DNA of 64,000 nt from Nitrospiraceae bacterium (GCA_003599275.1 QZJG01000065.1:1410-65409), one strand, 5' to 3'; counted from the stretch's first letter, positions 4,872 through 60,848 are shown. The notes: generated by a model not told the origin, from the letters alone. Made by a program: numbers and translations.

Positions 4872-4990
4872 TGAGACGGCCCCCGGTTAATTTCAAGAAT
4901 CGACTTAAATTTTATATCAGACTCCCATCCCATTGTCAAACAGCCGGGGCGGGTTAAACGCACAATTCTTTATTTTGTATAATATAAACC

Positions 4991-6406: not shown

Positions 6407-6513
6407 GTCATAATGACTTGTGGGACATGTTGGCCTGACGTAATCGGGACATATTGGCCTATACTCAATAAAATGTTTAATCCAACCGGTTGAAGTTTCA
6501 GGAAATATAATCC

Positions 6514-6529
6514 TGGCATCCGTTTTGCT
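6514..6529 (+). promoter_or_regulatory. Sigma-54 (-24/-12) promoter upstream of the hsp20 operon
   Basis: TGGCATCCGTTTTGCT matches TGGCAC-N5-TTGC, with GG at 6515-6516 and GC at 6527-6528. It lies 50 bp upstream of hsp20 (RBS GGAGG at 6565) and directly downstream of the sigma-54 activator gene. Confidence 0.65.
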
Positions 6530-6577
6530 TTTTAAATTATATGAAATTTAATTTAAACCTGAGAAGGAGGTGGGACC

Positions 6578-7009: not shown

Positions 7010-7021
7010 CCCAATAAGGAG

Positions 7022-7420
7022 GTGTTTGAAATGGCGGAGACAATAAAAGACATAAAGACTTCTGAAGGCGGGCATAGAAAGGAGAGAAGGATCTATGTCC
7101 CCGCAGTGGATGTGATAGAGACGGCAAACAACATTCTTGTGATCGCTGATATGCCGGGTGTGGATGAGAAATCCGTAGACATTACAGTGGAAAAGGATCT
7201 CCTTACAATTTACGGGATGATAGATACGCCGGTTTCTCATGACCTTGGACCGGCGGTTGCCGAATACGGCATCGGAGATTACAGGAGGGCGTTCAGTCTT
7301 TCCGATGAAATCGACAGTGAAAAAATAAAGGCCTCTTTCAAAGACGGCGTGTTGAAGCTCGTTCTGCCTAAATCGGACAAAGTCAGGACAAGAAAGATAC
7401 AGGTGATCAGCGAGGCTTGA
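7022..7420 (+). CDS. Hsp20/alpha-crystallin family small heat-shock protein (second copy)
   Basis: ADMPGVDEKSVDITV ... GVLKLVLPK; RBS AAGGAGG. Confidence 0.85.
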   Translation: MFEMAETIKDIKTSEGGHRKERRIYVPAVDVIETANNILVIADMPGVDEKSVDITVEKDLLTIYGMIDTPVSHDLGPAVAEYGIGDYRRAFSLSDEIDSEKIKASFKDGVLKLVLPKSDKVRTRKIQVISEA

Positions 7421-7446
7421 CCAGTTAACATCTGAACAATAAAGGG

Positions 7447-7487
7447 CCGGTGCGTGAGCAGACAATATTCATGCACCGGCTCTTTTT
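7447..7487 (+). terminator. Rho-independent terminator after the hsp20 operon
   Basis: Stem CCGGTGCGTGA/TCATGCACCGG followed by CTCTTTTTGTTT. Confidence 0.6.
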
Positions 7488-7516
7488 GTTTGTTCTTATG
7501 ACCCGCGCAACCGACT

Positions 7517-7930
7517 TCAGGTTGCTGCAGTTATCATATCGTCCCCGTTCATTTTCATGCCTTTTATCTTCCATCCCTCAAAAAATGTGTCAAAACGGTG
7601 GGGCCTTGAGACATCAAATTTCGGGGGCATCCTGAAGGTCTTCCTTGAAATCGCCGGGCTGTTGTCCGCCTTTCCAAGCAGCACAGTAACTTCTCCTTCC
7701 GCCGCGTTGATACTCACGATCATCTGGAATACGGGCTTATTAATGATTGTACTCATGATGGGGTTGATCTTTGCCATTGCCTGGGGCTCCAGGACTGTTA
7801 TAAATGTCCCGCTGCCGATGTTGTCTTCATCCGGGATAAGGATTTCTGAAAACTCTATGCCGGGCAGTGGTTTGTCTTCACGGCTTCTTATCTCTGCCAA
7901 TTTTACCTCCTGATATCGAAAGGTTTGCAC
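7517..7930 (-). CDS. Hypothetical protein (137 aa)
   Basis: Intact ORF with no recognisable motif. It sits between the hsp20 terminator and lpxB. Confidence 0.35.
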   Translation of the reverse strand: MQTFRYQEVKLAEIRSREDKPLPGIEFSEILIPDEDNIGSGTFITVLEPQAMAKINPIMSTIINKPVFQMIVSINAAEGEVTVLLGKADNSPAISRKTFRMPPKFDVSRPHRFDTFFEGWKIKGMKMNGDDMITAAT

Positions 7931-8086
7931 GTGTTATTCATTAAGGTCACACAGATTTTATCTGTACGGGCAGATTTTTTCAATTCATACTACGGTGTTA
8001 TGAATAATGGGGGACCAGATGATTATCACATCATGCGCATTGAATTACCCTTCTGTTTAATGATATTTTATCGGGTGTCGAAGAAG

Positions 8087-9187
8087 ATGATGATAAGCGC
8101 GGGCGAGGCCTCAGGAGAGTTATACGGCGCGCTGCTGAGCAGGGAGGTCAAAAGGCTCTGGCCCGATACGGAGATCTTCGGCATCGGCGGCCCACGGATG
8201 AAAAATGAAGGCGTCACGCTGATCGCCCCCATTTCGCAGGTAGTCGGAATTGTTGAGGCCGTCAAACATACAGGAGAAGTCAGGGACACCTTCAGAAAGG
8301 CGAAAGAGGCGCTGGTCACTAAAAGACCCGATGTGCTCGTCCTTATTGATTATCCCGATTTCAATATCGCACTTGCCAAAAGGGCAAAGGCCGCAGGTAT
8401 TCCGATTCTTTATTACGTAAGTCCTCAAGTGTGGGCATGGAGGCGCGGACGGGTGAAAACTATTGCTTTGTTGGCGGACAGGATCGCCGTGCTTTTCCCC
8501 TTTGAATGTGAATATTATAAGGAGACCGGGCTGCCCTGCGAGTTTGTAGGACATCCTGTTGCCGAGACAATCAATATTACGCAGACAAAAGAAGAGCTGA
8601 AAAAGGACCTCGGCCTTGCCCCGGACAGGGATGTGGTCACACTGCTTCCGGGGAGCAGGCCTGCAGAGATCAAAAGGCATCAGGCAATCATTAAAGGGAC
8701 CGCTGAAAAATTCCATCACGAATTTCCCGGCGTACAGGTAGTCGTCCCTCTCACTGCCGAATCGAATCTCCCGGAAGGGCTTCCGGATTATGTCAAAGTC
8801 ATCCGCGCCCGCACTACCGAGGCTGTCGCCTGTTCAGAGGCAGCGGCAGTGGCGTCAGGCACTGTAACGTTTGAAACCGCGCTCACCGGCACACCCATGG
8901 TGGTTTTTTACAGGGTCTCCCCGGTAACATATTTTCTTGCAAAACTGCTGGTAAAGGTTGAATTCATTTCTCTCGTCAACATCCTCTCCGGCAAAAGGGT
9001 CGTCCTGGAGCTGCTGCAGGAAAAAGCAAGTCCCGACAGAATTTTTGCCGAGATGAAAAGAATCCTGCATGACATGCCGTACCGGAATGACATGATATCG
9101 GACCTGGGCAAGATTAAAGCCCTTATGTCCGGGAAGAAACCGTCTCAGCGTATCGCCCGGATGGCCGGTGAGATGGCTGGATGGTAG
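8087..9187 (+). CDS. lpxB: Lipid-A-disaccharide synthase LpxB
   Basis: N-terminus MMISAGEASGELYGALL...FGIGGPRM and the GT19 fold pattern. The start was chosen at ATG 8087; the ORF is open from 7925. Confidence 0.8.
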   Translation: MMISAGEASGELYGALLSREVKRLWPDTEIFGIGGPRMKNEGVTLIAPISQVVGIVEAVKHTGEVRDTFRKAKEALVTKRPDVLVLIDYPDFNIALAKRAKAAGIPILYYVSPQVWAWRRGRVKTIALLADRIAVLFPFECEYYKETGLPCEFVGHPVAETINITQTKEELKKDLGLAPDRDVVTLLPGSRPAEIKRHQAIIKGTAEKFHHEFPGVQVVVPLTAESNLPEGLPDYVKVIRARTTEAVACSEAAAVASGTVTFETALTGTPMVVFYRVSPVTYFLAKLLVKVEFISLVNILSGKRVVLELLQEKASPDRIFAEMKRILHDMPYRNDMISDLGKIKALMSGKKPSQRIARMAGEMAGW

Positions 9188-9190
9188 AGA

Positions 9191-10441
9191 ATGCTGCTAT
9201 ATAATCTTCTTTCAGCCATAGGGGTTGTTTTTTACCTCCCGAAACTTATCTTTAAAAAAGGCCCTGAAAACAGGCGCTCCTTCATCAGTGAACGCCTCGG
9301 CATGTCTTCTTATGCAAGGACAGACATATGGGTGCATGCCGTTTCCGTCGGGGAAGTGATTGCGTGCGTGCCTTTTTTGAAGATGCTGAAGAAGGAATTT
9401 CCCGGCGAAAGAATTCTACTCTCCACAACAACTTATACCGGACAAAAGGTCGCGCGGGAGAAATTCCCCGAGGCCGACAGGACAATGTACTCGCCTCTGG
9501 ATACGGCATTCTGCGTCAGACGCGCAGTCAACTCATTGAAACCCAAAATATTCATCACGATAGAGACCGAGCTCTGGCCGGCCCTCTTTCATAGACTGAA
9601 ACGGTCAGGTTCTTCAGTAATCGTTCTGAACGGCAGGATATCGGACAAATCATTCAAAGGCTACAGGCGGCTTGGTTTTCTTATGAAGAGGGTCCTGTCG
9701 CACATTGATTTTTTTTATATGCAGACCGGGGCGGACGCTGAAAGGATAATGACCATCGGCGCACCTGGACATAAAGTGGGCGTGATGGGGAATTTTAAAT
9801 TCGATATCACGTTTGACACATCGAAACACTTAGACTGGCTGGATGAAGTCAAGGGCAGGACACTGCTTGCCGCAAGCACTCACAAAGGTGAAGAAGAAAT
9901 AATCATTGACGCTTATGCGTCTGTAAAACGGGACCATCCTGATTTAAAACTCATCATCGCCCCGAGACACCCTGAGAGGTTTGACGAAGTTGGGGAAATT
10001 ATAAGCAGGAGAAACCTGAAATTCATCAGGCGAACGGAAATGAATGAGGGACAAGGGGCAAGAGACAAGGAGCAAGACATCATCCTTCTTGATACCATAG
10101 GCGAATTGCCGCGAGTTTTTTCCGGAGTCGCCATGGCCTTTATCGGCGGAAGCCTTGTGCCGAAAGGGGGGCACAATATCCTTGAGCCTGCTTACTGGTC
10201 AAGGCCGGTAATCTTCGGGCCGCACATGAACAACTTTCCTTTTGCGAAGGAATTCATAGACCGGGGCGCGGCCCTTCAGGTCAATAACGCAGACGATGTC
10301 GCGAAAACGGTCCAATATCTTTTGGATAATGAGGCAAAAGCGGTCAACATGGGACAAAATGCAAAAAAAATTTTAGACAACAACATCGGCGCGGTAAACA
10401 GGGCAATCGAGCTCGTCAGAGGTTACCTTGGGACTGCTTAG
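9191..10441 (+). CDS. waaA: 3-deoxy-D-manno-octulosonic acid (Kdo) transferase WaaA/KdtA
   Basis: HAVSVGEVIACVPFLKMLKKEFP...LSTTTYTG, typical of KdtA, within the lpxB-kdtA-lpxK synteny. Confidence 0.8.
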   Translation: MLLYNLLSAIGVVFYLPKLIFKKGPENRRSFISERLGMSSYARTDIWVHAVSVGEVIACVPFLKMLKKEFPGERILLSTTTYTGQKVAREKFPEADRTMYSPLDTAFCVRRAVNSLKPKIFITIETELWPALFHRLKRSGSSVIVLNGRISDKSFKGYRRLGFLMKRVLSHIDFFYMQTGADAERIMTIGAPGHKVGVMGNFKFDITFDTSKHLDWLDEVKGRTLLAASTHKGEEEIIIDAYASVKRDHPDLKLIIAPRHPERFDEVGEIISRRNLKFIRRTEMNEGQGARDKEQDIILLDTIGELPRVFSGVAMAFIGGSLVPKGGHNILEPAYWSRPVIFGPHMNNFPFAKEFIDRGAALQVNNADDVAKTVQYLLDNEAKAVNMGQNAKKILDNNIGAVNRAIELVRGYLGTA

Positions 10442-11444
10442 CGGACTATACGGACTCGGACTAAAATGCAAGAGGTCACTTGTTAAGCCGTGCAGATTGC
10501 CTGCGAAGGTCATCAGCGCAGGCAATCTGACCCTCGGCGGAACGGGCAAGACGCCTGCCGCGATTGCAATTGCAGAGGAGGCAAAAAAGCGGGGCCTCAA
10601 ACCTTGCATTTTAACACGAGGATATAAAGGCAAAGTGAAAGGGCCGTGCTTTGTCGAGGGCAAAGGGCAAAGGACAAAGGGCAAAGACATTGTTTGCTTC
10701 GGTGTTGACGCCGGGGACGAGCCCGCGTTAATGGCTGAGAGATTAAAAGATGTGCCAATCGTGAAATGCGCGGACAGATACAAAGGCGGCATGTTTGCTC
10801 TTAACTCTCAACTCTTAACTCTCAACTCTCAACTCGTTTTCATCCTCGATGACGGCTTTCAGCACTGGGCGCTTCACAGGGATGTTGACATAGTCCTCGT
10901 TGACGCGGGCAATCCTTTCGGGAATGAAAAACTCTTTCCCGAAGGCAGTCTGAGAGAACCTCTTGAATCTCTAAGGCGGGCGGGTATCATTGTCATCACA
11001 AAAGCTGATATGGTCAGCGGGGAGTCTCTCTCAAAGCTTGTTCAAAAAATTAAACGATATAATCAGGAAGCGCCGGTATACACAGCGTCACATAAAGCCG
11101 CCGCCATTGTTAACGTGTCAGGGGAGCCTATGGGCCTCGAAATCCTGAAGAGTAAAAACGTCCATGCGTTTGCCGGCATTGCCAATCCTGAATATTTCAA
11201 AGACACATTAATTTCAAACGGCGCAAGTATCGCAGAGTTCAAATCCTTCAGGGACCATTATATTTACAAACAGCGTGACATTGATAAAATAAAATCCGCT
11301 GCGGCGGGGCTGGACATCATTACAACCGAGAAAGATTTGGTGAAGCTCAAAGGTTTGCGATTGCCGGACAACATATTCGCCCTCAGGGTCGATTTTTCCA
11401 TTGAGGAAGGTTTTTATAATTTAATTTTTGGAGGGGTAAGGTGA
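10428..11444 (+). CDS. lpxK: Tetraacyldisaccharide 4'-kinase LpxK (contains an in-frame heptanucleotide tandem repeat)
   Basis: Walker-A-like GNLTLGGTGKTP and the ILDDGFQH motif. Overlaps kdtA by 14 nt. Confidence 0.8.
   Translation: MGLLSGLYGLGLKCKRSLVKPCRLPAKVISAGNLTLGGTGKTPAAIAIAEEAKKRGLKPCILTRGYKGKVKGPCFVEGKGQRTKGKDIVCFGVDAGDEPALMAERLKDVPIVKCADRYKGGMFALNSQLLTLNSQLVFILDDGFQHWALHRDVDIVLVDAGNPFGNEKLFPEGSLREPLESLRRAGIIVITKADMVSGESLSKLVQKIKRYNQEAPVYTASHKAAAIVNVSGEPMGLEILKSKNVHAFAGIANPEYFKDTLISNGASIAEFKSFRDHYIYKQRDIDKIKSAAAGLDIITTEKDLVKLKGLRLPDNIFALRVDFSIEEGFYNLIFGGVR
10801..10835 (+). repeat. Five tandem copies of heptamer YYAACTC inside lpxK
   Basis: ttaactc tcaactc ttaactc tcaactc tcaactc, encoding LNSQLLTLNSQL. 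Three related copies lie at 49068-49088. Confidence 0.8.
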
Positions 11445-11839
11445 TAAAAAACATCAACATCAGGACAAAATCACGGAACGAGTTCGTTGACATTACCTCT
11501 GAATTGCAAACGCTCATAGATGAAGCCGGGATAAAAGGCGGTATATGCCTTGTCTACGTCCCTCACACGACGGCAGGAGTGACAATAAACGAAGGGGCGG
11601 ACCCTTCTGTTGTAAAAGATATTCAGAATACCCTCAGTAAGCTGGTCCCCCGGGAAGGGCATTATCTGCATTCGGAAGGGAATTCAGACGCTCACGTCAA
11701 AGCGACCCTTGCCGGCTCTTCACAGAGCATCATCATCGACGGCGGCAAGCTCCTCCTCGGCACCTGGCAGTCCGTGTTCTTCTGCGAATTCGACGGCCCG
11801 CGTCACAGAAGGGTGACGGTGAAGATCGTGAGTGATTAA
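11441..11839 (+). CDS. YjbQ/UPF0047 family protein (secondary thiamine-phosphate synthase-like)
   Basis: VYVPHTTAGVTINE...DAHVKATLAGSS matches the YjbQ family. Confidence 0.7.
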   Translation: MIKNINIRTKSRNEFVDITSELQTLIDEAGIKGGICLVYVPHTTAGVTINEGADPSVVKDIQNTLSKLVPREGHYLHSEGNSDAHVKATLAGSSQSIIIDGGKLLLGTWQSVFFCEFDGPRHRRVTVKIVSD

Positions 11840-11862
11840 TAATGCGTGGTTACCGCAGCCTC

Positions 11863-11961
11863 TTAAGAGTTTTCATCCCCCTCCACAATGGCAATCTCTT
11901 CCGGCGTGAGGCCGTAGAGGGTGTAAACCAGTTGGTTTATCTCTGCTTCGAGACGCGGGAC
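11863..11961 (-). pseudogene. C-terminal remnant of an R-M N6-adenine methyltransferase / type IIG enzyme
   Basis: The only conserved part of the 112-aa ORF is its C-terminus, EAEINQLVYTLYGLTPEEIAIVEG. This is the characteristic C-terminal helix of many R-M methyltransferases and PglX-like proteins. The upstream part has no similarity and no RBS. Confidence 0.5.
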
Positions 11962-12074
11962 TGGCTTTGGATTACTCTTTATACGAATTGAGTATGCTAT
12001 AATGAACCAATTAAAAATTATCAAATCTATGTGTTCTGATGTTTGCAGAATCGAATGATTATTGAGGAGACGCG

Positions 12075-13208
12075 ATGCCGGGAAAAATCCCAGGTTATGG
12101 TGGGAAAAGGCCTCAGTTGAAAATAGAGGTTGACCGACTTCATCTCGACGCAGAAAACCCTCGTCTTCCTGAATCAATACAAGGACAGAAGGAAGCCACA
12201 ATTCTTCAGGAACTATTTGAAGAGTTCAATCTGGAAGAAATTTCAGACTCGATTTCTCAAAATGGCTACTTTGATGAAGAGCCGCTTGTCGCAATACCTC
12301 TTGGCCTTACCGCGAAACTTCTCCGCAAGTCTGAAAGCGAAAATTATGACGCATTCATTCATAAAAAAACGACTCAGTTTACTGTCGTCGAGGGGAATAG
12401 ACGATTAGCAACAATCAAAATACTCCTCGATAAGGGCACTCAGAACTCTTTAGGTATTCGCTCTTGGCCTGAAATCAGCAAAGAGGTTCGCGAAGATATT
12501 TCTAAATTGCCGGTTATTGTCTATCCAGAACGCAAAGAGGTAATTCCATATCTCGGTGTGCGACATATAACTGGTATAAAGAAGTGGGATGCTTATGCAA
12601 AAGCACGATATATAATTCATATGATAGAAAGTGGGCTATCAATAGAAAACATAGAACTGCGAATTGGTGATAAACAGGGATCGGGCAGGAAAAATGTTAT
12701 CTGCTATAAAATGATCAAGCAAGCCCACGAGGAATTTGATTACGATGTCAGTTTAGCGACGCAATACTTTTCGTATCTGATGTTATCAATTGGACAACTC
12801 CCTATAAGAAATTACCTGGGGATGGGAAAGCTTAAGGAAATATCATTAGATGAGCCTATACCAAATACTAAGATAGAGGAATTGAAAAACCTCTTGTCTT
12901 GGCTTTTTGGTGAAGATAAAAATAGGAAACCTGTAATAGATGATTCAAGAGAGATTACGCAATATTTAACGCATGTTGTTAAAAGCCCTGAAGCAGTGGA
13001 GTACCTGAATAAGACCCGACGATTGCAGGATGCGTATGAATTAACCGATGGTGAGGAGACAATGCTGAAGAAAACCCTATCATCTGCCGGGTTCAAGCTT
13101 GAAAAAGCTTTAGGAATTATACATAGACATAAAACTCTTGAAATAAAAGCGGAAGTCGAGAAATGCTTTGAGACGGCTAACCGGCTTCGTAAAACAATTA
13201 ATGAGTAG
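12075..13208 (+). CDS. ParB/Srx-fold (ParB-like nuclease domain) protein
   Basis: LHLDAENPR and VVEGNRRLATIKIL match the ParB N-terminal domain motifs (DPxNPR / GxRR). AT-rich context. Confidence 0.6.
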   Translation: MPGKIPGYGGKRPQLKIEVDRLHLDAENPRLPESIQGQKEATILQELFEEFNLEEISDSISQNGYFDEEPLVAIPLGLTAKLLRKSESENYDAFIHKKTTQFTVVEGNRRLATIKILLDKGTQNSLGIRSWPEISKEVREDISKLPVIVYPERKEVIPYLGVRHITGIKKWDAYAKARYIIHMIESGLSIENIELRIGDKQGSGRKNVICYKMIKQAHEEFDYDVSLATQYFSYLMLSIGQLPIRNYLGMGKLKEISLDEPIPNTKIEELKNLLSWLFGEDKNRKPVIDDSREITQYLTHVVKSPEAVEYLNKTRRLQDAYELTDGEETMLKKTLSSAGFKLEKALGIIHRHKTLEIKAEVEKCFETANRLRKTINE

Positions 13209-13210
13209 CT

Positions 13211-14068
13211 ATGATAGAGATTCCTGACGCACAATCTCACCGCGCTGTTGCCGATTGGCTTGAAATTCACCTATCAATTTTTGCTGCATCGATATCTAAG
13301 GCTGAGCTTTCTTCATATTTAGAAGGGCTGTCTGGAGACGAAAGCACCGAGGCATTCTTAAGTAGCGTTTGGAACGAATTGCTATCAAGGCAGAGTCAAT
13401 ATATGCGACCGCCTTTTATCGTATCTGAGAGGCGCATAATCAAGAATACTGCTGTAACGTATGGTGTTGAATATCTTACATGTTTGATTCTTTCTCTATA
13501 TGGTGTGAATGATCATGATATTTCCGGAAGGAGAATGCGCTCAGCTAAATTATTTGAAAGACTCTCCGGATTTGCTCTCCAAGAATATTTAGGTGGGAGA
13601 TTTTTTTTATTTGGCTGGCCTGCGTTAGATGGCACAGAGCCCGCAATTCAAGCTCGTATTCAGCAAGTTTCTACTGAATTGAACGAACGATTTGTCGAAG
13701 CACCTGCAGCGACCTATAAAGATAGGGGCGTAGATATAATTGCATGGAAGCCTTTCGCTGAAGGCAGAAGCTGCCAATGCGTCATTTTAGCGCAATGCGC
13801 TGCTGGTAAGGATTGGCGAAATAAGACGACTACTCTGCCAATGGATGCCTGGACTAAATACATACATTGGGCATCTAATCCAATCAAAGCATTTTTTGTT
13901 CCTTGTGTGATTCCTGATAATTTGTGGCTTGAAGCTTCGTGGGAAGCCGGAATCTTATTTGATCGAATCAGGATAATGAATTTATTAAATGGTGGAATTC
14001 CTGACGAACAACTCAATCAAGATCTTTTGACATGGACAACCGAGCAGCTTAGTGAGCATGAGGTATGA
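13211..14068 (+). CDS. Hypothetical protein, candidate type II restriction endonuclease partner of Dcm
   Basis: No conserved family was recognised. Its stop overlaps the Dcm start (ATGA), which implies translational coupling. There is a possible PD-(D/E)xK-like segment, KDRGVDIIAWK. Confidence 0.35.
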   Translation: MIEIPDAQSHRAVADWLEIHLSIFAASISKAELSSYLEGLSGDESTEAFLSSVWNELLSRQSQYMRPPFIVSERRIIKNTAVTYGVEYLTCLILSLYGVNDHDISGRRMRSAKLFERLSGFALQEYLGGRFFLFGWPALDGTEPAIQARIQQVSTELNERFVEAPAATYKDRGVDIIAWKPFAEGRSCQCVILAQCAAGKDWRNKTTTLPMDAWTKYIHWASNPIKAFFVPCVIPDNLWLEASWEAGILFDRIRIMNLLNGGIPDEQLNQDLLTWTTEQLSEHEV

Positions 14069-15402
14069 AATTTATTGACTTATTTGCAGGACTCGGTGGA
14101 TTTCACATTGCACTCAGGCAACTTGGGCATAGTTGTGTCTTCGCGAGTGAGTTAGACCCGCTGCTGCGTGATTTATACAACGAGAATTTCAGCATATTGC
14201 CTGCTGGTGATATTCGTACCATAAAGGTATCCGACATCCCATCACATGACATTTTGTGTGCAGGCTTCCCTTGTCAACCATACTCAAAAGCCGGAGAGCA
14301 GCAAGGCACATCATGCCCACGCTGGGGGGATCTGTTTGAGCATCACGTTATCAGAATAGTAAAAGCTCATGAGCCAAAATATGTTTTACTGGAGAATGTG
14401 CCTAACCTAGTCAGACACAATAATGGACGCACATGGGATCAGATGCAGCAAAGGCTTGCTAAGTGCGGTTATGAGGTTGCGTCCGAAATTCTATCACCCC
14501 ATCATTTTGGTATCCCACAGATTCGTGAGCGCATGTTTGTTGTTGGCAGTCGCACGGGGCTTGATAAATTTAAATGGCCCCAAAAAACAAGCGTTCAGTG
14601 CTCAATAGGCTCTATTCTTGATCTGAAGCCTCCGGATGCAAAGCCATTGTCAGCGCAGGTAACAAAATGTATGGAGGTATGGCAAGACTTTTTAGATCGC
14701 TCACCGCATGATGAGGGGCTGCCGTCTTTTCCAATCTGGACAATGGAATTTGGGGCAGACTATCCTTTCGAAGACACAACGCCATACGCCATCGGCACAA
14801 AGAGACTGCGACAATATAAAGGATCTCATGGGTTTAAACTTTCAAAGGCTGGACCAAAGCAGAGATTTGATTGCCTACCCTCTTATGCAAGGACAAAAGA
14901 GAAGCTATTCCCTGACTGGAAGATTCAGTTTATTCGACAGAACCGTGACTATTACAACAAGAATAAACGGTGGATAAAGCCGTGGCTTCCCAAAATCCTT
15001 GAATTTCCTCCGAGCTTGCAGAAGTTTGAATGGAATTGCAAAGGCGAAGAGAGGGACATATGGCAATTTATAATACAGTTTCGCGCTTCAGGAGTCAGAG
15101 TTAAACGGCCGACCACTGCTCCTTCTTTAGTAGCAATGACATCAACCCAAGTGCCAATCATTGCATGGGAGAAACGTTATATGACGCCTCGGGAATGCAG
15201 CCGCCTTCAAAACATGGAGTCTTTGCGCGACCTTCCGGGGTCACAAACAAAAGCATATAAAGCTCTTGGCAATGCCGTTAATGCTGAAGTTGTAAGGAAG
15301 ATTGTTGAATCCCTTTGTGTATCAGGACACCGATACACAGACATGATTGCTGTATCTCGACTGCAACAGATATCGCCTGTAGTTTTGATAGATAGCTTAT
15401 AA
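14065..15402 (+). CDS. dcm: DNA (cytosine-5)-methyltransferase (Dcm family)
   Basis: Motif I FAGLGGF, motif IV GFPCQPYS, motif VI ENVPNL, motif X ALGNAVN. Confidence 0.9.
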   Translation: MKFIDLFAGLGGFHIALRQLGHSCVFASELDPLLRDLYNENFSILPAGDIRTIKVSDIPSHDILCAGFPCQPYSKAGEQQGTSCPRWGDLFEHHVIRIVKAHEPKYVLLENVPNLVRHNNGRTWDQMQQRLAKCGYEVASEILSPHHFGIPQIRERMFVVGSRTGLDKFKWPQKTSVQCSIGSILDLKPPDAKPLSAQVTKCMEVWQDFLDRSPHDEGLPSFPIWTMEFGADYPFEDTTPYAIGTKRLRQYKGSHGFKLSKAGPKQRFDCLPSYARTKEKLFPDWKIQFIRQNRDYYNKNKRWIKPWLPKILEFPPSLQKFEWNCKGEERDIWQFIIQFRASGVRVKRPTTAPSLVAMTSTQVPIIAWEKRYMTPRECSRLQNMESLRDLPGSQTKAYKALGNAVNAEVVRKIVESLCVSGHRYTDMIAVSRLQQISPVVLIDSL

Positions 15403-19237: not shown

Positions 19238-20247
19238 TGAATGAACTCGTTCTCCTGTTTAATGGCCTCCAAACACCCTCAAGTGGCTCTGATTTTCCTG
19301 AGACATTCAGTGGCATACAAATCCCCAGTCGCCCTTCATGGCATCTATGTAAAGACCGATACGGGCGTCCCGCGCTGCTGGTATCTATTCCAACTGAAGG
19401 ATCGAGAATTAATACCCCGCCAAGTATTGCTCTGGAAAATCTAAGGGTTGAGCACAATATTCAGTGTCGAATAGCTCAAGCCAAGAAACAAGGAGATATT
19501 ATTATAAGGCACTTCTCCATTCTCCAGTGCTTATCAGATGAGAGAGCGCTACATGAATATTTTCTTTTAACAATGAGTGCGATTATAAAATCGCTTCCAG
19601 AAGCATTATCTGTTGATCAATTATCTGACACAGTTGATGTATTGGCTGATTTATTTCATACGCTTCAGCAAGCTCCAAAACAGTCAGTTCAGGGTCTTTG
19701 GGCCGAGTTGTTTGTGATAGCATTCGCCCAACTCCCAGAGGTAATGCTTCAGGCGTGGCATGATAACACCGATGAGCGGTATGATTTCAGCTTGGGGGCA
19801 CAGCGCGTTGAAGTCAAAAGCTCTGGAGATAGGACACGCCGCCATCATTTTGCACTTGAGCAGGCTTATCCACCGACAGGCACTGATGTTTTGGTAGCAT
19901 CAATTCTTGTTGAGCAAGCAGCAAACGGCATGGCACTCGGTGAATTATGGGACAAGGTAAGAGAGATTGCTGGCGCAGATTCAGATTTACTGCTGAAGGT
20001 GGAAAGTATCTGCATAAATGCTCTTGGAGCATCATGGTCAACAGCAAGGTCAAAACGGTATGATCGTTATTTGGCAGAGCAATCATTGCTTTGCTTCGAT
20101 ATCCGCTCTATGCCTCGCGTCTCTGAAGATCAGCCACATGGAATAACAGATGTTCGATTTCGAGCAGACCTTTCTTTTTCAAGACCTATTGATAAGTATT
20201 CCTATCGCGGCTTGGGACCACTTTTTAATGCATGTCTTACAGGATAG
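19237..20247 (+). CDS. PD-(D/E)xK family nuclease (AIPR-like position in the Dcm/Z1 cassette)
   Basis: GLWAELFVI ... ERYDFSL ... RVEVKSS gives the E / D / ExK triad. Confidence 0.55.
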   Translation: MNELVLLFNGLQTPSSGSDFPETFSGIQIPSRPSWHLCKDRYGRPALLVSIPTEGSRINTPPSIALENLRVEHNIQCRIAQAKKQGDIIIRHFSILQCLSDERALHEYFLLTMSAIIKSLPEALSVDQLSDTVDVLADLFHTLQQAPKQSVQGLWAELFVIAFAQLPEVMLQAWHDNTDERYDFSLGAQRVEVKSSGDRTRRHHFALEQAYPPTGTDVLVASILVEQAANGMALGELWDKVREIAGADSDLLLKVESICINALGASWSTARSKRYDRYLAEQSLLCFDIRSMPRVSEDQPHGITDVRFRADLSFSRPIDKYSYRGLGPLFNACLTG

Positions 20248-50998: not shown

Positions 50999-51135
50999 CG
51001 ACCCAAAATACAGTTGTTAGGGAATAGGGGGCAGGAATTAGAAAAAAGATTAAAAACTCCTTCACTTCTCCTGTCGTTTCACTAACAACTGACCTCTAAT
51101 AACTAACAACTGTTCAATCTGAACAGCAGATTGAA

Positions 51136-51223
51136 CGGAGAGGGAGGGAGTCGAACCCTCGAGACGGTATTAGCGTCTACACGATTTCCAGTCGTGCTCC
51201 TTCGGCCACTCGGACACCTCTCC
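51136..51223 (-). tRNA. tRNA-Ser (anticodon GGA), type II with long variable arm
   Basis: Reverse complement GGAGAGGTGTCCGAGTGGCCGAAGGAGCACGACTGGAAATCGTGTAGACGCTAATACCGTCTCGAGGGTTCGACTCCCTCCCTCTCCG. Acceptor stem GGAGAGG/CCTCTCC, anticodon loop CTGGAAA, T-loop GGTTCGACT. Confidence 0.85.
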
Positions 51224-51420
51224 AGTAAAGACAGCGATCACTAAACCCTGACTACTGTCGAATTTGTGCTGCGAAGATAAAGACCGTTTGCAGACGCAAA
51301 TAATTTTGCAGTAGTTTAACATTTTTAAAACCGCTTTTGTATCCTCCGGACTTCAGTCTTTCGCACCCGGCTTACGCGCATTATTATTCATAAATTCGGC
51401 CATTGGGGTATAATTAACAC

Positions 51421-54920: not shown

Positions 54921-55808
54921 ATGAAAAAACTCCTCGTGACAGGCGCAAGCGGTTTTTTAGGCTGGAACATCTGCAACCTTGCGGGAAAAGAATGGGACGT
55001 TTGCGGAACGGTCTTTTCTCATCCGGTTGAAATCGCCGGCGCTAATATTTTAAAAGTAGATTTGACGGATTATGGGGAGATGAAGAAGGTCTTCAACGAG
55101 ATACGCCCCGATGCGGTCATTCACACGGCTGCGGCTGCGGACCCCAATTACTGCCAGTCAAACAGGGCGGAGACACGAAGGACCAATGTTGACGCCTCCG
55201 TCAATATTGCGGGACTTTGCTCGGATGCAGGAACTCCCTTTGTCTTCACCTCGACCGACCTTGTCTTTGACGGTCTGAACGCGCCCTACCGCGAAGATGA
55301 CCCGGTCAGTCCGATAAATATTTACGGTGAGCAAAAGGTGACGGCTGAACGGGAGATTTTAAAGAGGTACCCAGATGCAGCCGTTTGCCGCATGGCCCTG
55401 ATGTTCGGCTTGTCCGGCCCTTCGTCGGAAAGTTTCATTCAGCCCATGCTGCGTGCGATGAGGGAAGGGCGTGAGTTGCGGCTGTTCGTTGACGAGATCA
55501 GGACGCCAATCAGCGCGGCAACCGCGGTCTGGGGTCTTTTAATTGCTCTGCAAAAAGCAAAGGGCCTGCTTCATCTTGGCGGCTCCGAGCGTATTTCCCG
55601 CTATGACTTCGGCAGGCTTATGGCCAATGTCTTCGGAGTTCCGGACGCAAAGCTCGTACAGTGCCGGCAGAAAGACATGACTATGGCCGCGCCGAGAGCG
55701 CCTGACGTCTCGTTCGACAATTCAAAGGCATCGGCACTGGGCTTCAGTCCTTTGCCTCTGAGGGACGAGCTGACGGCGATAATACACAGATTGTCGTATC
55801 GGGGCTGA
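54921..55808 (+). CDS. NAD(P)-dependent epimerase/reductase (RmlD-like SDR)
   Basis: Rossmann motif LVTGASGFLGWNI and catalytic YGEQK. Confidence 0.75.
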   Translation: MKKLLVTGASGFLGWNICNLAGKEWDVCGTVFSHPVEIAGANILKVDLTDYGEMKKVFNEIRPDAVIHTAAAADPNYCQSNRAETRRTNVDASVNIAGLCSDAGTPFVFTSTDLVFDGLNAPYREDDPVSPINIYGEQKVTAEREILKRYPDAAVCRMALMFGLSGPSSESFIQPMLRAMREGRELRLFVDEIRTPISAATAVWGLLIALQKAKGLLHLGGSERISRYDFGRLMANVFGVPDAKLVQCRQKDMTMAAPRAPDVSFDNSKASALGFSPLPLRDELTAIIHRLSYRG

Positions 55809-56049
55809 CGCCCTATCGGTTTATCACTTCTCTCAGGGTATGGGGAGGGCGACTTTTCAGGACTCGACACTTGTCGCTGATCACTTAGCACTACTCCCTT
55901 TAATTAAATCCAAATATTTCTCTTGAAATTGCACGCTGATCGCTGATTGCTTAAGGCTGCTTTTTGCCTTTCACGCTTTCGCACTTACGCGCTTGGAATA
56001 TTCTTGCTGTTTCTCAGGGAGTTGATTAAAATTAAGCGGTGATTTTTAG

Positions 56050-56220
56050 AAGGGGGAAAGGGAAGAAAGATCCGAAGACAACGCCCGCGAAATAATTGAT
56101 GAGATACTTATTGCCAATCTCAAACGCGCTGAACGACTGCGGCAGTCGATATTGAAGAAGGCGTTTTCGGGGAGGCTTGTAGAGCAGGAGAAGAACTATA
56201 ACACTATGGGAAATACCTAA
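56050..56220 (+). pseudogene. hsdS: 3' remnant of type I R-M specificity subunit hsdS
   Basis: A 57-codon open frame with no start. It ends ...EDNAREIIDEILIANLKRAERLRQSILKKAFSGRLVEQEK, the conserved C-terminal coiled-coil of HsdS (LRQSILKxAFxGxL). Confidence 0.65.
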
Positions 56221-56244
56221 CGCAATAAAGTTGTAGGAGATAGC

Positions 56245-58209
56245 ATGAGTAATCTAAGAGCCTTTGTAGGTCATAGCTTTACAGATAATGATAAAGATGT
56301 AGTTCGTGAGTTCCTTGATTTTTTTGATCGAGTTCAAAGGATGGGGCTCGGATTCACATGGGATCATGCTGAGCCTGCTGCTCCAAAGATTCTTTCTGAG
56401 AAAGTATTAAGATTAATGGAAGATAAAAATCTGTTTATTGCAATATGTACGGCAAAGGAACAGGTCATAGATCCAAAGAATCTAAAAGAATCATGGCTAA
56501 ATAAGACAATTTTGAAAGCAAAAAAAGATGCTTTTAATTGGAAAACATCTGACTGGATTATTCAAGAAATAGGAGTTGCTGTTGGGAAGAAAATGGAGAA
56601 AATTATTTTACTTGAAGAGGGGTTAAGAAAACCTGGAGGACTCCAAGGAGATTTAGAATATATTCTTTTTAAACGTAACGAGCCATCAAAATCCTTTAAT
56701 AAAATAATTGAGATGTTAACAGCACTTTCACCAAAGGAGACATTGATCAAAGCTTCTCAATCGGAATCATCTGAAAAAACAGAAGTTGAGGCAATGCAAC
56801 AAGAGAAAGAAGAAAAGGTGGAGCCATCTACCTCTTGGGGAAAAAATGATTATGAATTTGCACTGTTTCGAGCCATTATCAAAGATGATAAAGAACAAGA
56901 ACAGAAAATAATTAAGGCATATAACGATTCAGAAGAAGGACAAAAAGACTCTAATAAAGCATCTTTTGAGGCCTTGAAATACTATTTCCGAAGATTGCAA
57001 GGTAAGGGAGTATACATAGAAGAACTAAAAGCATTGGCCAGCAAACATCCTGATAAGAGTGAAATTTCTTATTATTTAGGAAAAGCATACGAGGAATATA
57101 AAGACAATGATAAAGCTACCGTTCAATATGAAAAATCTGCTGAGTATACGCAAAGCCCTGAAGACAAGCTTGATCGTTATTGTTATGCTGCATTGGCAAA
57201 ATGTAAAAATGGTTCTAAGGACAGTGAAGACTGGCTGTTAAATAAGGTACGAATTTTGATTCCTGAGGTTGACGGTGGGGAATTTAGACTTTTAACGGCA
57301 CTAAGAGATATTGCTTTAATCGACGATAATAATGACAATTATTTAGCATTTGCAGAAAGGATGCTCGATATTAAGCCCGATGATAAAGATTTAAGATTTT
57401 CATTGGCATATAAGTATTCGGAGCTAAATAATAACGAATTAGCATTATTTCATTATTTGCTAATCCCGAATAGGGATCGTAACTCTGCAACTTGGAATAA
57501 TATAGGTGTTGCATGTGCAGAGCTTGGAATGCATGGAAAGGCAGTAGATGCATATCGTGAATCTGAAAAACTGGGGGGAACACTTGCTATGAGTAACCTA
57601 TCACATAAATTTATAACAGCCGGCTTCTTAAAGGAAGCAGAAGAAATTTGTGATAACGCTGTGAAAATAGAAAACTATAACAAACAAGTAGGAACTGCTA
57701 TCACGAGCATTAAAGAAACCAAAGACAATGACGATCAAAAACAAAAAAAGATATTAGATGATTATGAAAAAAGACGTAAGTTCTATATTGATTATGGGAA
57801 AGCAAGTATAAACCATCCGCCTGAAAATCATGAGGGTGTATGGGCTGGACCTGAATGTGAGCTCAATATCGAAGTTAAAGGAAGGACCTTTATTGCAAAA
57901 GGAAGTTATGAGAAAAAGGAGCGATTAAGGGTTGGGCTTGCTCCTCTTGCTTTTAGTTATGCATATAGTCAGGCAGAAAAGTCAGTGAAAATAAATGTCC
58001 GCTATGAAGGCGTCATAATAGGACGGGGAATAGAATATAAACTATTCATAGATAGAGAAGGTGGACAATCTACCGGGATAACAGCCTTTATTGATGGCGG
58101 ACCATCTAATGAGGGATTAATGATTATTGATGAAAATATGAAAACAATTAAGGTATATCAAAAAGGATCAAAAGAGACGGAGAAATTTTATGAGCTACGG
58201 AGAAAATAA
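56245..58209 (+). CDS. TIR-like domain / TPR-repeat protein (candidate antiphage effector)
   Basis: N-terminus RAFVGHSFTDNDKDVV ... LFIAICTAKEQ ... SDWIIQEIGVAVG resembles bacterial TIR (SxW..E motif). Then multiple TPR-like repeats and a beta-rich C-domain. Very AT-rich gene. Confidence 0.5.
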   Translation: MSNLRAFVGHSFTDNDKDVVREFLDFFDRVQRMGLGFTWDHAEPAAPKILSEKVLRLMEDKNLFIAICTAKEQVIDPKNLKESWLNKTILKAKKDAFNWKTSDWIIQEIGVAVGKKMEKIILLEEGLRKPGGLQGDLEYILFKRNEPSKSFNKIIEMLTALSPKETLIKASQSESSEKTEVEAMQQEKEEKVEPSTSWGKNDYEFALFRAIIKDDKEQEQKIIKAYNDSEEGQKDSNKASFEALKYYFRRLQGKGVYIEELKALASKHPDKSEISYYLGKAYEEYKDNDKATVQYEKSAEYTQSPEDKLDRYCYAALAKCKNGSKDSEDWLLNKVRILIPEVDGGEFRLLTALRDIALIDDNNDNYLAFAERMLDIKPDDKDLRFSLAYKYSELNNNELALFHYLLIPNRDRNSATWNNIGVACAELGMHGKAVDAYRESEKLGGTLAMSNLSHKFITAGFLKEAEEICDNAVKIENYNKQVGTAITSIKETKDNDDQKQKKILDDYEKRRKFYIDYGKASINHPPENHEGVWAGPECELNIEVKGRTFIAKGSYEKKERLRVGLAPLAFSYAYSQAEKSVKINVRYEGVIIGRGIEYKLFIDREGGQSTGITAFIDGGPSNEGLMIIDENMKTIKVYQKGSKETEKFYELRRK

Positions 58210-58212
58210 ATT

Positions 58213-58284
58213 ATGAGCACAGCACAAATAGTTCAAAAACTTTAGAATTACTGCAACGTCCTCCGTGACGATGGGATGAGTTAA
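58213..58284 (+). pseudogene. hsdM: 5' fragment of type I R-M methyltransferase hsdM (copy 1, internal stop)
   Basis: MSTAQIVQKL*NYCNVLRDDGMS* is the highly conserved HsdM N-terminus (IVQKLWNYCNVLRDDG), with TAG in place of Trp. Confidence 0.6.
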
Positions 58285-58286
58285 AT

Positions 58287-58940
58287 ATGAAAAAATCAGG
58301 CAGGTATAATACAGCGCATTTAATTGAAGATCAATTCGAGCCGGGGTCGCGTGGCAGGGTGCTCAGAAATCTTTTGCATATCACTCGCAAGCGCGAGATG
58401 GATGTTATTGAGGCTGAACGATACGCGCTTGTGCAAACGAAACTCATGGGTATGTTCACGAAAGAGCATCGCTTTTCCGCATCCGATACCTGCACGATAC
58501 ATAGAGAATGGCTTAGCGATGTGTATGAGTGGGCCGGACAATACCGACAGGTGAACATATCAAAGAACGGCTTTAGCTTTGCTATGGCACCTTATGTCCC
58601 AAAGCTGATGCAAGACTTTGAAGCCGGAGCGTTGAAAAAATATACCCCTTGTCTCTTTAAAAGCGATGATGAAATTGTTGCCGCGCTCGCAGTAGTCCAT
58701 ACCGAACTTATGCTGATTCATCCCTTCCGTGAAGGAAACGGACGGGCAGGGAGACTGCTCGCAGTTTTAATGGCATTACAGGCAGGGCTACGGGGTCTTG
58801 ATTTTACTGATATACAAGGTAAAAAGCGGAAAGAATATTTTACTGCTGTGCAGGCAGGTATGGGGCAGGATTATGAACCGATGAAAAAAATTTTCAGGTC
58901 CGTGGTTTCCCGGACGAAACAGAAACATGTGCAGTGCTGA
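58287..58940 (+). CDS. fic: Fic-family protein (AMPylator/toxin), no intrinsic inhibitory helix
   Basis: Fic motif HPFREGNGRAGR. No [ST]xxxE[GN] motif anywhere in the protein. Confidence 0.85.
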   Translation: MKKSGRYNTAHLIEDQFEPGSRGRVLRNLLHITRKREMDVIEAERYALVQTKLMGMFTKEHRFSASDTCTIHREWLSDVYEWAGQYRQVNISKNGFSFAMAPYVPKLMQDFEAGALKKYTPCLFKSDDEIVAALAVVHTELMLIHPFREGNGRAGRLLAVLMALQAGLRGLDFTDIQGKKRKEYFTAVQAGMGQDYEPMKKIFRSVVSRTKQKHVQC

Positions 58941-59100
58941 AGACGGTTTTCGCCTTGGCTATATTTTTCATGGCTTTCCTCGCAGGCGCATGGACCCCCT
59001 CGATAGCCGAGGAAGAAATGGTAACAGTTTCGATGATCTGCCTGCGTACCTCAGGGTCTTTAAGGAAGGGGTTGGTTTCAAGTAATGACTTCTTTGACAT
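58894..59100 (-). CDS. Small protein carrying the Fic-inhibitory (S/T)xxxE(G/N) motif; candidate antitoxin or Fic N-terminal remnant
   Basis: MSKKSLLETNPFLKDPEVRRQIIETVTISSSAIEGVHAP... contains SSAIEG. It is convergent with fic and overlaps its 3' end by 47 nt. Weak RBS. Confidence 0.35.
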   Translation of the reverse strand: MSKKSLLETNPFLKDPEVRRQIIETVTISSSAIEGVHAPARKAMKNIAKAKTVFSTAHVSVSSGKPRT

Positions 59101-59145
59101 GCTATATCATACCATTTGATGACAGGATATCGAAAGGCATAATAA

Positions 59146-59217
59146 ATGACTAACGGCTCAGCCACTATAGTCCAAAAACTCTGGAACTATTGCAACGTCC
59201 TTCGTGACGACGGATGA
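59146..59217 (+). pseudogene. hsdM: 5' fragment of hsdM (copy 2)
   Basis: MTNGSATIVQKLWNYCNVLRDDG* is about 85% nt-identical to copy 1 and is truncated by TGA. Confidence 0.6.
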
Positions 59218-59361
59218 ACCGCGACGACATTACCGACTTCAACTGATCTTTCAATGTCAGGCGAAGTCTGACGCCCCCAAAAAATCTCTTGACAGGTCGG
59301 CTTTGGTCTCATATGATTTTATCAGGGAGTATTACAGGATTTTTATAGCAGTGCAAAGGAG

Positions 59362-59766
59362 GTGAATGAGGTGAGGTTTTCGCTTATTAAACATATTTCG
59401 TGGTATCTTGTTTTTGTCATGTTCCTGACCGGCATTGTGCCCCGCGTCGAAGCAGGGATTTCCCCTTCGGAGGCGATTGCCGCCGTGGGATTTGACAGGG
59501 GTTCCGATATCCAAACGATCCGGAAATTCATCGAAATGAAAATGGTGAGGGAAAGACTCGCGAAACTTGGATTCACTGCGGATGAGGTCCAGTCGAGACT
59601 CGGTCAATTAAGTGATGAGCGGATCCATCAGCTCGCACAGAGGCTCGATGACCTTAAGGTCGGCGCCGACGACGGGCTGGGGATCATAATCGCCTTACTT
59701 GTTATCGCGATTTTGATAGTCATTCTGATACAGCTTACGGGTCGCAAGATTATTATCACCAAATGA
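59362..59766 (+). CDS. PA2779-family small protein (signal peptide plus C-terminal TM)
   Basis: N-terminal signal and C-terminal hydrophobic LGIIIALLVIAILIVILIQL. Paired with a downstream C39-like peptidase, as in PA2779/PA2778 pairs. Confidence 0.45.
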   Translation: MNEVRFSLIKHISWYLVFVMFLTGIVPRVEAGISPSEAIAAVGFDRGSDIQTIRKFIEMKMVRERLAKLGFTADEVQSRLGQLSDERIHQLAQRLDDLKVGADDGLGIIIALLVIAILIVILIQLTGRKIIITK

Positions 59767-59781
59767 TTTTCAGGGACCTCT

Positions 59782-60348
59782 ATGTCAGGCAACGTCAGTT
59801 CTTATAGGACAAAAAAGGATGCAGCGCTGCATCCTTTTTTGTTTCTCGTGGTATTTTCTTTTGTCATTTCATGCTCCGGTGCGGCTGAGATAAGGGGGGG
59901 CGGCGTCGAAATTATCAGGGACGTCCCTTTCTATCCGCAGGAGGCCTACCAGTGCGGCCCTTCATCACTTGCCGGAGTAATGAATTATCTCGGAGCGGAT
60001 GCCACGCCTGAGGAGATCGCGGAGGAGATTTACAGTAAATCGGCAGGAGGGACGCTGGATATGGACATGGTCCTATACGCGGAGAAAAAGGGGTTGAGGG
60101 CGAGCCTGTATGAAGGCAGCTTTGAGGACATCAGGGACAAAGTCATGTCGCAGCAGCCGCTGATAGTCATGGTGGATTACGGTTTCTGGGTTTATCAGCA
60201 AAACCATTTTATGGTTGTTACAGGATTCGACAAAAACGGTGTTATAGTCAATTCCGGCAGAGAGCAACACAAGTTTCTGCCCATAAATAATTTTTTGAGG
60301 TCGTGGGAGAGGACAAAATTCCGGACACTCCTTATATTGCCCCAATGA
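59782..60348 (+). CDS. C39-like (PA2778-family) cysteine peptidase
   Basis: FYPQEAYQCGPSSLAGVMNYLG (Cys) and HFMVVTGFD (His) dyad. Signal peptide. Confidence 0.6.
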   Translation: MSGNVSSYRTKKDAALHPFLFLVVFSFVISCSGAAEIRGGGVEIIRDVPFYPQEAYQCGPSSLAGVMNYLGADATPEEIAEEIYSKSAGGTLDMDMVLYAEKKGLRASLYEGSFEDIRDKVMSQQPLIVMVDYGFWVYQQNHFMVVTGFDKNGVIVNSGREQHKFLPINNFLRSWERTKFRTLLILPQ

Positions 60349-60848
60349 TAAGATCTGCGAAATGCATAATATGCCTTAAACCCAGGACCCTGTTTTTACT
60401 TCTTCTCTTATCGCTGCTGATTTTTTCCGCATGCAGGCTTCCAAGGATAATCGTTCTGGACGACCCGCTTGCCCCGGAGGAACATTTAAACCTGGGGGTC
60501 GCATATGAAAAAAACGGCGAGTTTGATTCAGCATTAAAAGAATATGGTCTTGCCGCTAAAAGGCTTCCCCTTGCCTTTCTTTATCTCGGCAATGTTTATT
60601 TTCAGAAGAACGAATTTGATAAGGCTGAGGAATATTACGGGAAGGCCATCACGGCGGACCCTGCAAATGCCGACGCATATAATAATCTTGCATGGCTTTA
60701 CTACACACAAAAGGACAATCTCCCGGAAGCGGAAGGTCTTGTGCTGAAGGCAATTGAACTGGCCCCCTCGAAGGATGCTGTTTACAGGGACACCCTTGAA
60801 AAGATCAGGTCTTTAAGAAAGTCCTCACCACCTGATCTTTTTCTATAA
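60345..60848 (+). CDS. TPR-repeat lipoprotein
   Basis: Lipobox LLIFSAC followed by TPR repeats (LNLGVAYEKNGEFDSALKEY..., YLGNVYFQKNEFDKAEEYY..., YNNLAWLYY). The ORF is open from 60303. Confidence 0.6.
   Translation: MIRSAKCIICLKPRTLFLLLLLSLLIFSACRLPRIIVLDDPLAPEEHLNLGVAYEKNGEFDSALKEYGLAAKRLPLAFLYLGNVYFQKNEFDKAEEYYGKAITADPANADAYNNLAWLYYTQKDNLPEAEGLVLKAIELAPSKDAVYRDTLEKIRSLRKSSPPDLFL

Follow-up and report, generated by a model that had tools for sequence, protein, structure and literature searches.

This report concerns the remains of a type I restriction-modification (R-M) operon in the genome of a Nitrospiraceae bacterium. The DNA analysed, referred to throughout as the window, is 64,000 nt long (GCA_003599275.1 QZJG01000065.1:1410-65409), and positions are counted from its start. 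Between ~56,002 and 59,217 the three genes of such an operon, hsdR, hsdS and hsdM, are nearly wholly deleted, and two embedded accessory defence modules are kept intact. One of these is a gene for a 654-residue protein that combines a domain resembling nucleoside 2-deoxyribosyltransferases (NDT) and TIR domains with an array of TPR repeats; the other is a fic gene with a small convergent partner. This segment probably descends, in stripped-down form, from a type I R-M operon that bore both modules as cargo. Its features, from left to right, are the following open reading frames (ORFs), gene fragments and promoter-like sites (L069, referred to here and below, is a related locus with an intact operon; other loci are likewise designated by number).

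56004..56032, plus strand: promoter-like element TTGCTG-17 nt-TAAAAT, derived from the hsdR upstream region; its function is predicted.
56059..56109, plus strand: hsdR 5' remnant of ~17 codons, REERSEDNAREIIDEIL, with the start codon lost; aligns to the HsdR start of L069, MVNKPEDKAREVIDDML.
56110..56220, plus strand: hsdS 3' remnant, consisting of the last 36 codons and the stop (containing NLKRAERLRQSILKKAFSGRLV); tblastn matches lie under annotated S subunits only.
56245..58209, plus strand: intact accessory gene of 654 codons.
58213..58284, plus strand: hsdM 5' stub 1, codons 1-23 of the hsdM allele natively following the 654-aa gene, with TAG at codon 11.
58287..58940, plus strand: fic gene, 217 aa, with motif HPFREGNGRAGR; candidate class I-type Fic toxin.
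58894..59100, minus strand: 68-aa ORF, putative antitoxin with SSAIEG, convergent with fic and overlapping its 3' end by 47 nt.
59106..59133, minus strand: promoter-like site TCGATA-16-TATGAT (with TG), immediately ahead of the 68-aa ORF and just before stub 2; from a consensus scan only.
59146..59217, plus strand: hsdM 5' stub 2, ~23 codons of a second allele (MTNGSAT...), associated with the fic module.

Three fragments of R-M genes had been reported in a preliminary description of this DNA, and they lie where it placed them: tblastn matches to them fall under annotated M and S genes, and the hsdR, hsdS and hsdM pieces are collinear with the intact operon of L069 (blastn, tblastn). The locus was also said to be a dead type I system, and so it is, all three subunits being reduced to fragments. 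Of HsdR, ~17 codons are left and the start codon is absent; of HsdS, which should have two target-recognition domains, the final 37 codons are left; in place of an HsdM with its N6_Mtase domain there are two ~23-codon stubs, one with an internal stop. A 930-aa HsdR query finds no other HsdR match in the 64-kb window by tblastn, and there is no further HsdM match beyond the two stubs. Pfam does not recognise the hsd fragments, which are too short for it, and its Methylase_S family has no match in the locus. Because all three defining subunits fail in this way, the element in the window is to be classed not as a type I system but as a relic with two probable stand-alone defence modules.

The left-hand fragment turns out to be composite. 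It had been taken, over 56050-56220, for the C-terminus of HsdS alone; in a tblastn search of plasmids, all matches to the 56-codon piece at 56050-56217 are in genes whose annotation is subunit S or specificity subunit, and Pfam, NCBIfam and PADLOC return nothing for these 56 residues. Alignment to L069 assigns its two parts differently: window 55968-56108 aligns to the hsdR upstream region and first codons, and window 56116-56180 to the 3' end of hsdS, with 89% identity (L069 9829-9893). To judge from the sequence, the fragment is a deletion fusion, without a start codon, that joins 17 hsdR codons (56059-56109) to the last 37 codons of hsdS (56110-56220). Since the alignment is collinear with the start of hsdR and the end of hsdS in L069, a single deletion of ~4 kb would have fused hsdR codon 17 to the hsdS tail. 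The identical junction is present in an independent assembly, L068 (GCA_016213945.1), which retains the ATG and has a 53-aa fusion ORF. Homology with L068 starts at window 56002, at the promoter-like element, and proceeds at 93% identity over 1.4 kb. The two loci lie in different genomic neighbourhoods, with dnaK-dnaJ upstream in L068 and an rmlD-like gene upstream in the window, and horizontal transfer of the island is suggested. (The sole housekeeping gene of L068 that can be compared is of the DnaJ family; it is 43-61% identical and possibly a paralog.)

It had been proposed that the retained gene ends may still supply a promoter, and the 5' end of hsdR does carry a conserved promoter-like element. 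The element at 56004-56032 is kept in the L068/L069 alignment and has a counterpart of better form at the same place in L083 (TTGACT-17-TAAAAT); in the window it scores at 8/12 consensus positions, under the threshold of the consensus scan. The 84 nt before the start of the 654-aa gene contain 2 differences from L068, where ~10 are expected at the synonymous rate, but the hsdR-derived part differs at 13/80 positions. For that reason the 654-aa gene is suggested to have a constrained 5' untranslated region (UTR) behind a decaying relic. Immediately left of the island, a 65-nt stretch at 55935-55999 (containing ctttcacgctttcgcacttacgcgctt) resembles the region upstream of an hsdR of a different family in L004 (77% over 66 nt) and matches L069 twice, at 5534-5559 and 20083-20118. 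Possibly this is a short element, repeated or regulatory, that is tied to hsdR upstream regions.

The other two fragments are 5' stubs of hsdM. Stub 1 begins 3 nt past the stop codon of the 654-aa gene, which is the position at which full-length hsdM starts in L072, and its DNA is 87% identical to the first 71 nt of the intact hsdM in L069. It translates as MSTAQIVQKL, stop, NYCNVLRDDGMS, stop, with an in-frame TAG replacing the tryptophan of functional HsdM; its coordinates and its identity as hsdM had been given correctly, the residue listed as W had not. The terminal TAA sits 2 nt ahead of the fic ATG (TAAATATG). Among eight fic loci examined, the junction of stub 1 with fic, ATGAGTTAAATATG (with GATGAGTTAAAT directly preceding the ATG), occurs only in the window and L069. 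A repeated microhomology origin of this junction from the region upstream of fic was considered and discarded: the six other fic loci have unrelated upstream sequence. Stub 2 translates as MTNGSATIVQKLWNYCNVLRDDG, followed by a stop. Homology to hsdM ends at 59217, the sequence beyond matches none of the loci compared, and the body of this second hsdM has probably been removed by a lineage-specific deletion.

Together the two stubs form a 58-nt direct repeat with 79% identity; the ~85% that had been quoted for them fits a 44-nt core (84%) and not the repeat as a whole. A degenerate pattern for the core is found at only these two places in the 64 kb and gives 0 matches in 100 shuffles. In a tblastn search of 72,556 plasmids, stub 2 has matches in 77 records. 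Among the 15 plasmid matches listed, 11 lie under genes annotated as N-6 DNA methylase, class I SAM-dependent DNA methyltransferase or type I subunit M, and the remaining 4 have no feature or annotation underneath. Two unannotated plasmid matches to the HsdM N-terminus were considered as candidate stubs in cultured organisms and rejected, since one record is unannotated and the other resembles a mis-called methylase start.

A metagenome scan with an alignment of the 654-aa family yielded 80 loci, and the proteins of L069 were then searched by tblastn. The gene order in L069 is hsdR, hsdS, the 654-aa homolog, fic, the 68-aa minus-strand ORF, DUF6557, AbiEi, AbiEii and hsdM, and its R, S and M subunits have precomputed Pfam support. 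L072 is the simplest form, hsdR-hsdS-homolog-hsdM, with nothing else between. The same genes stand in the same order between hsdS and hsdM in the intact operons of L069, L072, L076, L080 and L083, and variants with other cargo are represented by L074, L076, L079/80/84, L083, L086, L094, L120 and L151. Stubs of hsdM 5' ends are already present inside intact operons: at 11977 and 12936 in L069, at 7552 in L076, at 2403 and 4224 in L080 and at 3025 in L074, with two more in L094 and four in L086, where they separate at least 10 cargo ORFs (4616-14231).

The L086 cargo, as read from its translations, includes a reverse transcriptase (RT)-like ORF with YADD, an Mrr-like ORF and two HNH-like ORFs, and resembles further defence cargo; the locus also has two copies of a ~240-aa gene, each ending at an hsdM start. 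Another type I locus with embedded genes is L155, on the Aulosira laxa plasmid AP018311.1 (4511-13390: hsdR, a 309-aa TPR protein, hsdM, two hypothetical genes, VapC and hsdS); the HsdM N-terminus match there lies upstream of the annotated methylase start, which is probably mis-called.

L087 and L088, which have the same genes at the same spacing and are possibly one sequence sampled twice, keep an hsdR remnant of ~43 codons, an hsdS tail, a 654-aa homolog and a 27-codon hsdM stub with a stop (L088 ~9560-12060). Their break-points differ from those in the window, and loss of the R-M genes with retention of the cargo has occurred independently at least twice.

The ancestral form of the operon would thus have been P(hsdR)-hsdR-hsdS-(NDT/TIR-like-TPR gene)-(fic + convergent antitoxin)-hsdM. 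The cargo would have been embedded while the R-M system still worked, and the stubs would be insertion scars, inherited along with it. The stubs could be seen instead as retained for function, whether as leader ORFs coupling translation of the cargo, or as HsdM N-terminal peptides or RNA elements regulating the operon. The stop of stub 1 lies close to the fic ATG (TAAATATG), window and L069 agree better in the stubs than at neutral positions nearby, and several of the stubs in L086 and L094 are still open reading frames. We nevertheless think such a role very unlikely. In-frame stops fall at differing codons in window stub 1, L076 and L087/L088; in L069, stub 2 is frameshifted and stub 1 has a 30-nt replacement; lengths vary four-fold; no Rfam match is found across 55500-59800 at E up to 1; and in L083 fic directly follows the 654-aa homolog, with no stub between.

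The preliminary description had placed the events in another order, with a type I locus decaying in place and becoming an integration hotspot in which the TIR-TPR gene and the fic module were later inserted separately. That order would be in keeping with the foreign composition of the 654-aa gene (35% G+C, versus 47% for fic and 48% for the whole window), with the non-identity of the two hsdM ends and with the variation among relatives of the region downstream of the rmlD-like gene. It is made very unlikely by what the relatives contain. The cargo did not colonise a decayed locus, for intact operons hold the same genes in the same order; nor did the stubs arise by local decay, for they are already present inside intact operons, and the junction of stub 1 with fic is common to the window and L069. 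Moreover, stub 1 starts precisely at the site of full-length hsdM in L072, and L068 has the entire unit, also devoid of R-M genes, in a different genomic position.

What the stubs derive from can be read from their differences. Compared with one another, or with the full-length hsdM of the same locus, stubs differ at 11-30% of nucleotides, and every comparison has a third-codon-position bias. Third positions account for 29/37 differences between stub 1 and the full hsdM of L094 (27 synonymous vs 6 non-synonymous codons; P=2.5e-8), for 10/15 between the two stubs of the window (8 synonymous vs 3 non-synonymous codons; P=0.0085) and for 5/5, all synonymous, between the first 15 codons of stub 2 in the window and in L069 (P=0.004). 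Most of the divergence must therefore have arisen while these sequences belonged to functional genes, and a simple local duplication followed by decay is ruled out by the same synonymous concentration. Each stub is a piece of a distinct, once-functional hsdM allele, not a decayed local duplicate. That at least two separate events left their mark on the locus, as had been argued from the non-identity of its stubs, is borne out by the different alleles from which the two derive.

This pattern is consistent with a series of replacements in which the resident hsdM gave way each time to an incoming segment of cargo plus hsdM. A stub would be the beheaded 5' end of a resident hsdM, displaced by such a segment recombining in from another operon; one end of the exchange would be a homologous crossover within hsdM, and the opposite end an illegitimate join. 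Events of that kind would match homology-facilitated illegitimate recombination. The stub break-points lie at codons 17-27, 41-46, 70-79 and 98-106 and are followed by unrelated sequences, so that there is no fixed crossover site; a range from codon 17 to codon 106 argues against a site-specific mechanism. An integron-like cassette system, with the ~58-nt hsdM 5' core as an attachment site for circular cargo that is duplicated on integration, would account for the core direct repeats that flank the fic module, for arrays with up to four stubs between cargo modules and (by Campbell-type integration) for the order stub-cargo-intact hsdM, but is highly improbable given these scattered end-points with their differing downstream sequences, the absence of any integrase or recombinase in or beside the arrays examined, the mostly synonymous 11-30% divergence of stubs from the hsdM of the same locus, and island ends at which no flanking direct repeats or target duplications were found.

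If the segment is indeed the derivative of a cargo-bearing operon, two later deletions in the window lineage would complete its history: one that begins near hsdR codon 18 and ends 37 codons short of the hsdS stop, and one that took hsdM away from about codon 23 onward. Together they would have abolished restriction and modification and spared three things: the promoter of the operon, the 5' UTR of the 654-aa gene and the fic toxin-antitoxin pair, which stabilises itself. No internal deletion can keep the cargo expressed unless it leaves both that promoter and the stretch immediately ahead of the cargo gene, and this requirement would be enough to explain why these particular gene ends survive. 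At the right side, a deletion extending further to the left would strike the putative antitoxin and be counter-selected. The remainder probably works as two autonomous accessory defence modules, the first a predicted effector of the nucleotide- or NAD (nicotinamide adenine dinucleotide)-glycosidase type with a TPR sensor, and the second a predicted AMPylating Fic toxin restrained by its small partner.

Several considerations weigh against this account. Some ~59 of the 80 family members examined do not adjoin the R-M family, and the type I link holds for a subclade only: ~18-20/80 loci are flanked by hsdS and hsdM of the R-M family (Methylase_S is the commonest upstream neighbour, at 11/67), and the remaining loci are in diverse contexts that include integrases, AbiC, AbiJ and NERD. 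The recombination that we infer to have made the stubs has a competitor in a deletion between tandem operons, which would give similar products; no hsdS or hsdR remnants are seen inside the arrays, which does not favour it. The promoter, the antitoxin function and the enzymatic activities are predictions. A scan of a genome collection with the rmlD-like flank gave only relatives at <=74% identity, in the nearest of which synteny stops right after the rmlD-like gene, and no empty-site or strain comparison was obtainable. Lastly, the stubs are better preserved than might be expected. Window and L069 are 76% identical in stub 1 and 79% in stub 2; third codon positions of flanking genes are 35-50% identical, and intergenic DNA is 49% identical. 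A scar as old as the flanking genes should be more decayed, and mosaic recombination or gene conversion would be needed to keep it as it is.

Stub 2 is simply explained if each of the two lineages had it, until recently, within a functional hsdM. Stub 1 should be old, because its junction with fic is common to the window and L069. The identity profile of the two loci is in fact mosaic, with peaks at the hsdS tail (0.88), at the first 60 nt of fic (0.90) and at the stubs, which may mean that the stubs have taken part in recombination or gene conversion. Within fic, the first 60 nt (window 58285-58344) are 90% identical to L069 and the rest of the gene 40-70%, which suggests a recombination break-point inside the gene. 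We offer tentatively, as something possible rather than probable, the more general idea that the conserved hsdM 5' end is a recombinase-free landing pad at which operons accrete defence genes module by module, with the stubs as the fossil record. Stubs would then keep acting as homology anchors, and would hence remain close to functional alleles.

The 654-aa gene retains all 50 invariant columns of its family, which is well conserved, ~655 aa in length and has at least 831 matches (E<=0.001, among candidates scored). Its dN/dS is 0.33 at a dS of 0.13 in comparison with L068, which is also without hsdR-hsdS, and 0.21 in comparison with L072; the gene is still under purifying selection. The persistence of that selection without R-M genes, and the many stand-alone homologs, argue for a protein that would be autonomous of the R-M complex. 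Embedding in a type I operon, as is expected of a PrrC-type guard, is found in the relatives and not in the window. Exact-sequence look-ups of the 654-aa protein and of Fic found nothing.

Four parts are distinguished in the protein: an NDT/TIR-like domain of flavodoxin fold (aa 1-161), a TPR array (~aa 200-475, recognised by both profile and fold), a long helix and a C-terminal beta domain (aa 529-653). AlphaFold gives confident models, the full-length one with a pLDDT of 84.7 and that of the N-domain with 89.0. By its predicted fold the N-domain belongs to the nucleoside 2-deoxyribosyltransferase-like superfamily. This fold is common to NDT and TIR, and NDT structures score slightly above TIR structures. 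The label "TIR-like" that had been attached to the protein is thus apt at the level of the modelled fold only, there being no TIR family among its Pfam matches at E up to 1. The NDT Pfam family gives no match either, and a PDB sequence search with the N-domain profile finds none. Compared with the N-glycosidase domains of the TIR/NDT type (ThsB, SARM1 TIR, NDT, Rcl and MilB), the N-domain in the window is distinguished by having no sequence-profile match and by its fusion to a TPR array and a C-terminal beta domain; the NDT/TIR-TPR-beta architecture is absent from PADLOC.

Of the cargo lying between the fragments, the AT-rich 654-aa gene and fic had been listed before, and the convergent 68-aa ORF had been missed. 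Fic has a Pfam Fic match above cut-off (9.4e-18), the catalytic motif HxFx(D/E)GNGRxxR is present in its translation as HPFREGNGRAGR, and it matches the PADLOC candidate PDC-S04 over the full length (5.2e-72; residues 6-208 on profile 3-203 of 205). Among solved structures it is closest to 8wt0, E. coli Fic 5jff and VbhT 3shg. The 68-aa ORF has no Pfam, NCBIfam, PADLOC or PDB match; its SSAIEG presumably represents the Fic inhibitory motif (S/T)xxxE(G/N). It is conserved beside fic in L069, L080 and L083, and L120 has a version of it in a 78-aa convergent ORF with SSGIEG; analogous small convergent ORFs with SS(S/T)AIE adjoin plasmid fic genes (L152 and L153; Marinomonas and Citrobacter). The 47-nt convergent overlap of 3' ends is found in both the window (58894-58940) and L069 (12688-12734). 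A Fic protein of ~200 aa with a separate small putative partner bearing a motif of this type resembles the class I Fic toxin-antitoxin systems, VbhT/VbhA and FicT/FicA of E. coli. In class I the antitoxin gene is usually upstream and co-directional, and a convergent overlap is an unusual layout. Unlike VbhA and FicA, the partner in the window lies downstream, convergent and overlapping, and matches no known antitoxin family. The number of promoter-like sites of the kind that precedes the 68-aa ORF is not above shuffled expectation in this region.

What looks like a single native operon adjoins the relic on the right, made up of a DUF6627 gene (59362-59766) and the genes for a C39-like peptidase (59782-60348) and a TPR protein (60303-60848). 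At 59289-59317, upstream of the DUF6627 gene, is a sigma-70-type promoter close to consensus, TTGACA-17-TATGAT, and a perfect 17+17-nt palindrome (ACAAAAAAGGATGCAGC/GCTGCATCCTTTTTTGT, 59809-59842) lies within the 5' end of the C39-like peptidase ORF. The sole tRNA gene of the window, tRNA-Ser(GGA) on the minus strand (51135-51224), is separated from the relic by 4.8 kb and has no integrase in its vicinity.

That type I operons can harbour embedded accessory genes is already established. PrrC lies within the EcoprrI type I operon (PMC12707154), and a five-gene type I R-M operon on VPI-2 of V. cholerae embeds two genes, TgvAB (10.1101/2024.04.04.588119); the embedded-gene concept is that of Payne and colleagues, as cited in the latter paper. 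The relatives of the window locus conform to this arrangement, as do the "embedded" candidates of PADLOC, in having accessory defence genes inside a type I operon, co-transcribed with it. The window departs from it in that the R-M genes are gone and the cargo alone survives. The order also differs from that of EcoprrI and VPI-2: it is hsdR-hsdS-cargo-hsdM, with the cargo stacked at the hsdM 5' end and a stub of a former allele for each step. The literature searched yielded no description of such hsdM stub arrays. Integron cassette arrays are similar as linear series of promoterless-looking modules beside a fixed platform gene, with a recurring element between; they differ in that the present arrays have no integrase and no fixed recombination point, and in that the repeat is a fragment of a protein-coding gene, from different alleles.

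Taken alone, the example in the window is an ordinary-looking relic, and its value comes with that of its relatives. How accessory genes enter R-M operons, and what follows the loss of the host system, have so far been poorly documented. Here the cargo outlives the R-M system, and the ordered series of hsdM stubs from different alleles records directly how cargo was captured, and hsdM displaced, in successive steps. The 654-aa NDT/TIR-like-TPR protein, a widespread and recurrent passenger that PADLOC does not contain, can reasonably be considered a candidate new defence effector; were the proposed account true, the embedded protein would be an uncharacterised effector of this kind. The stub pattern can be searched for genome-wide and offers a handle on how defence islands assemble; if the hsdM 5' end does serve as a landing pad, it would provide a concrete, testable mechanism for that assembly without the machinery of mobile elements.

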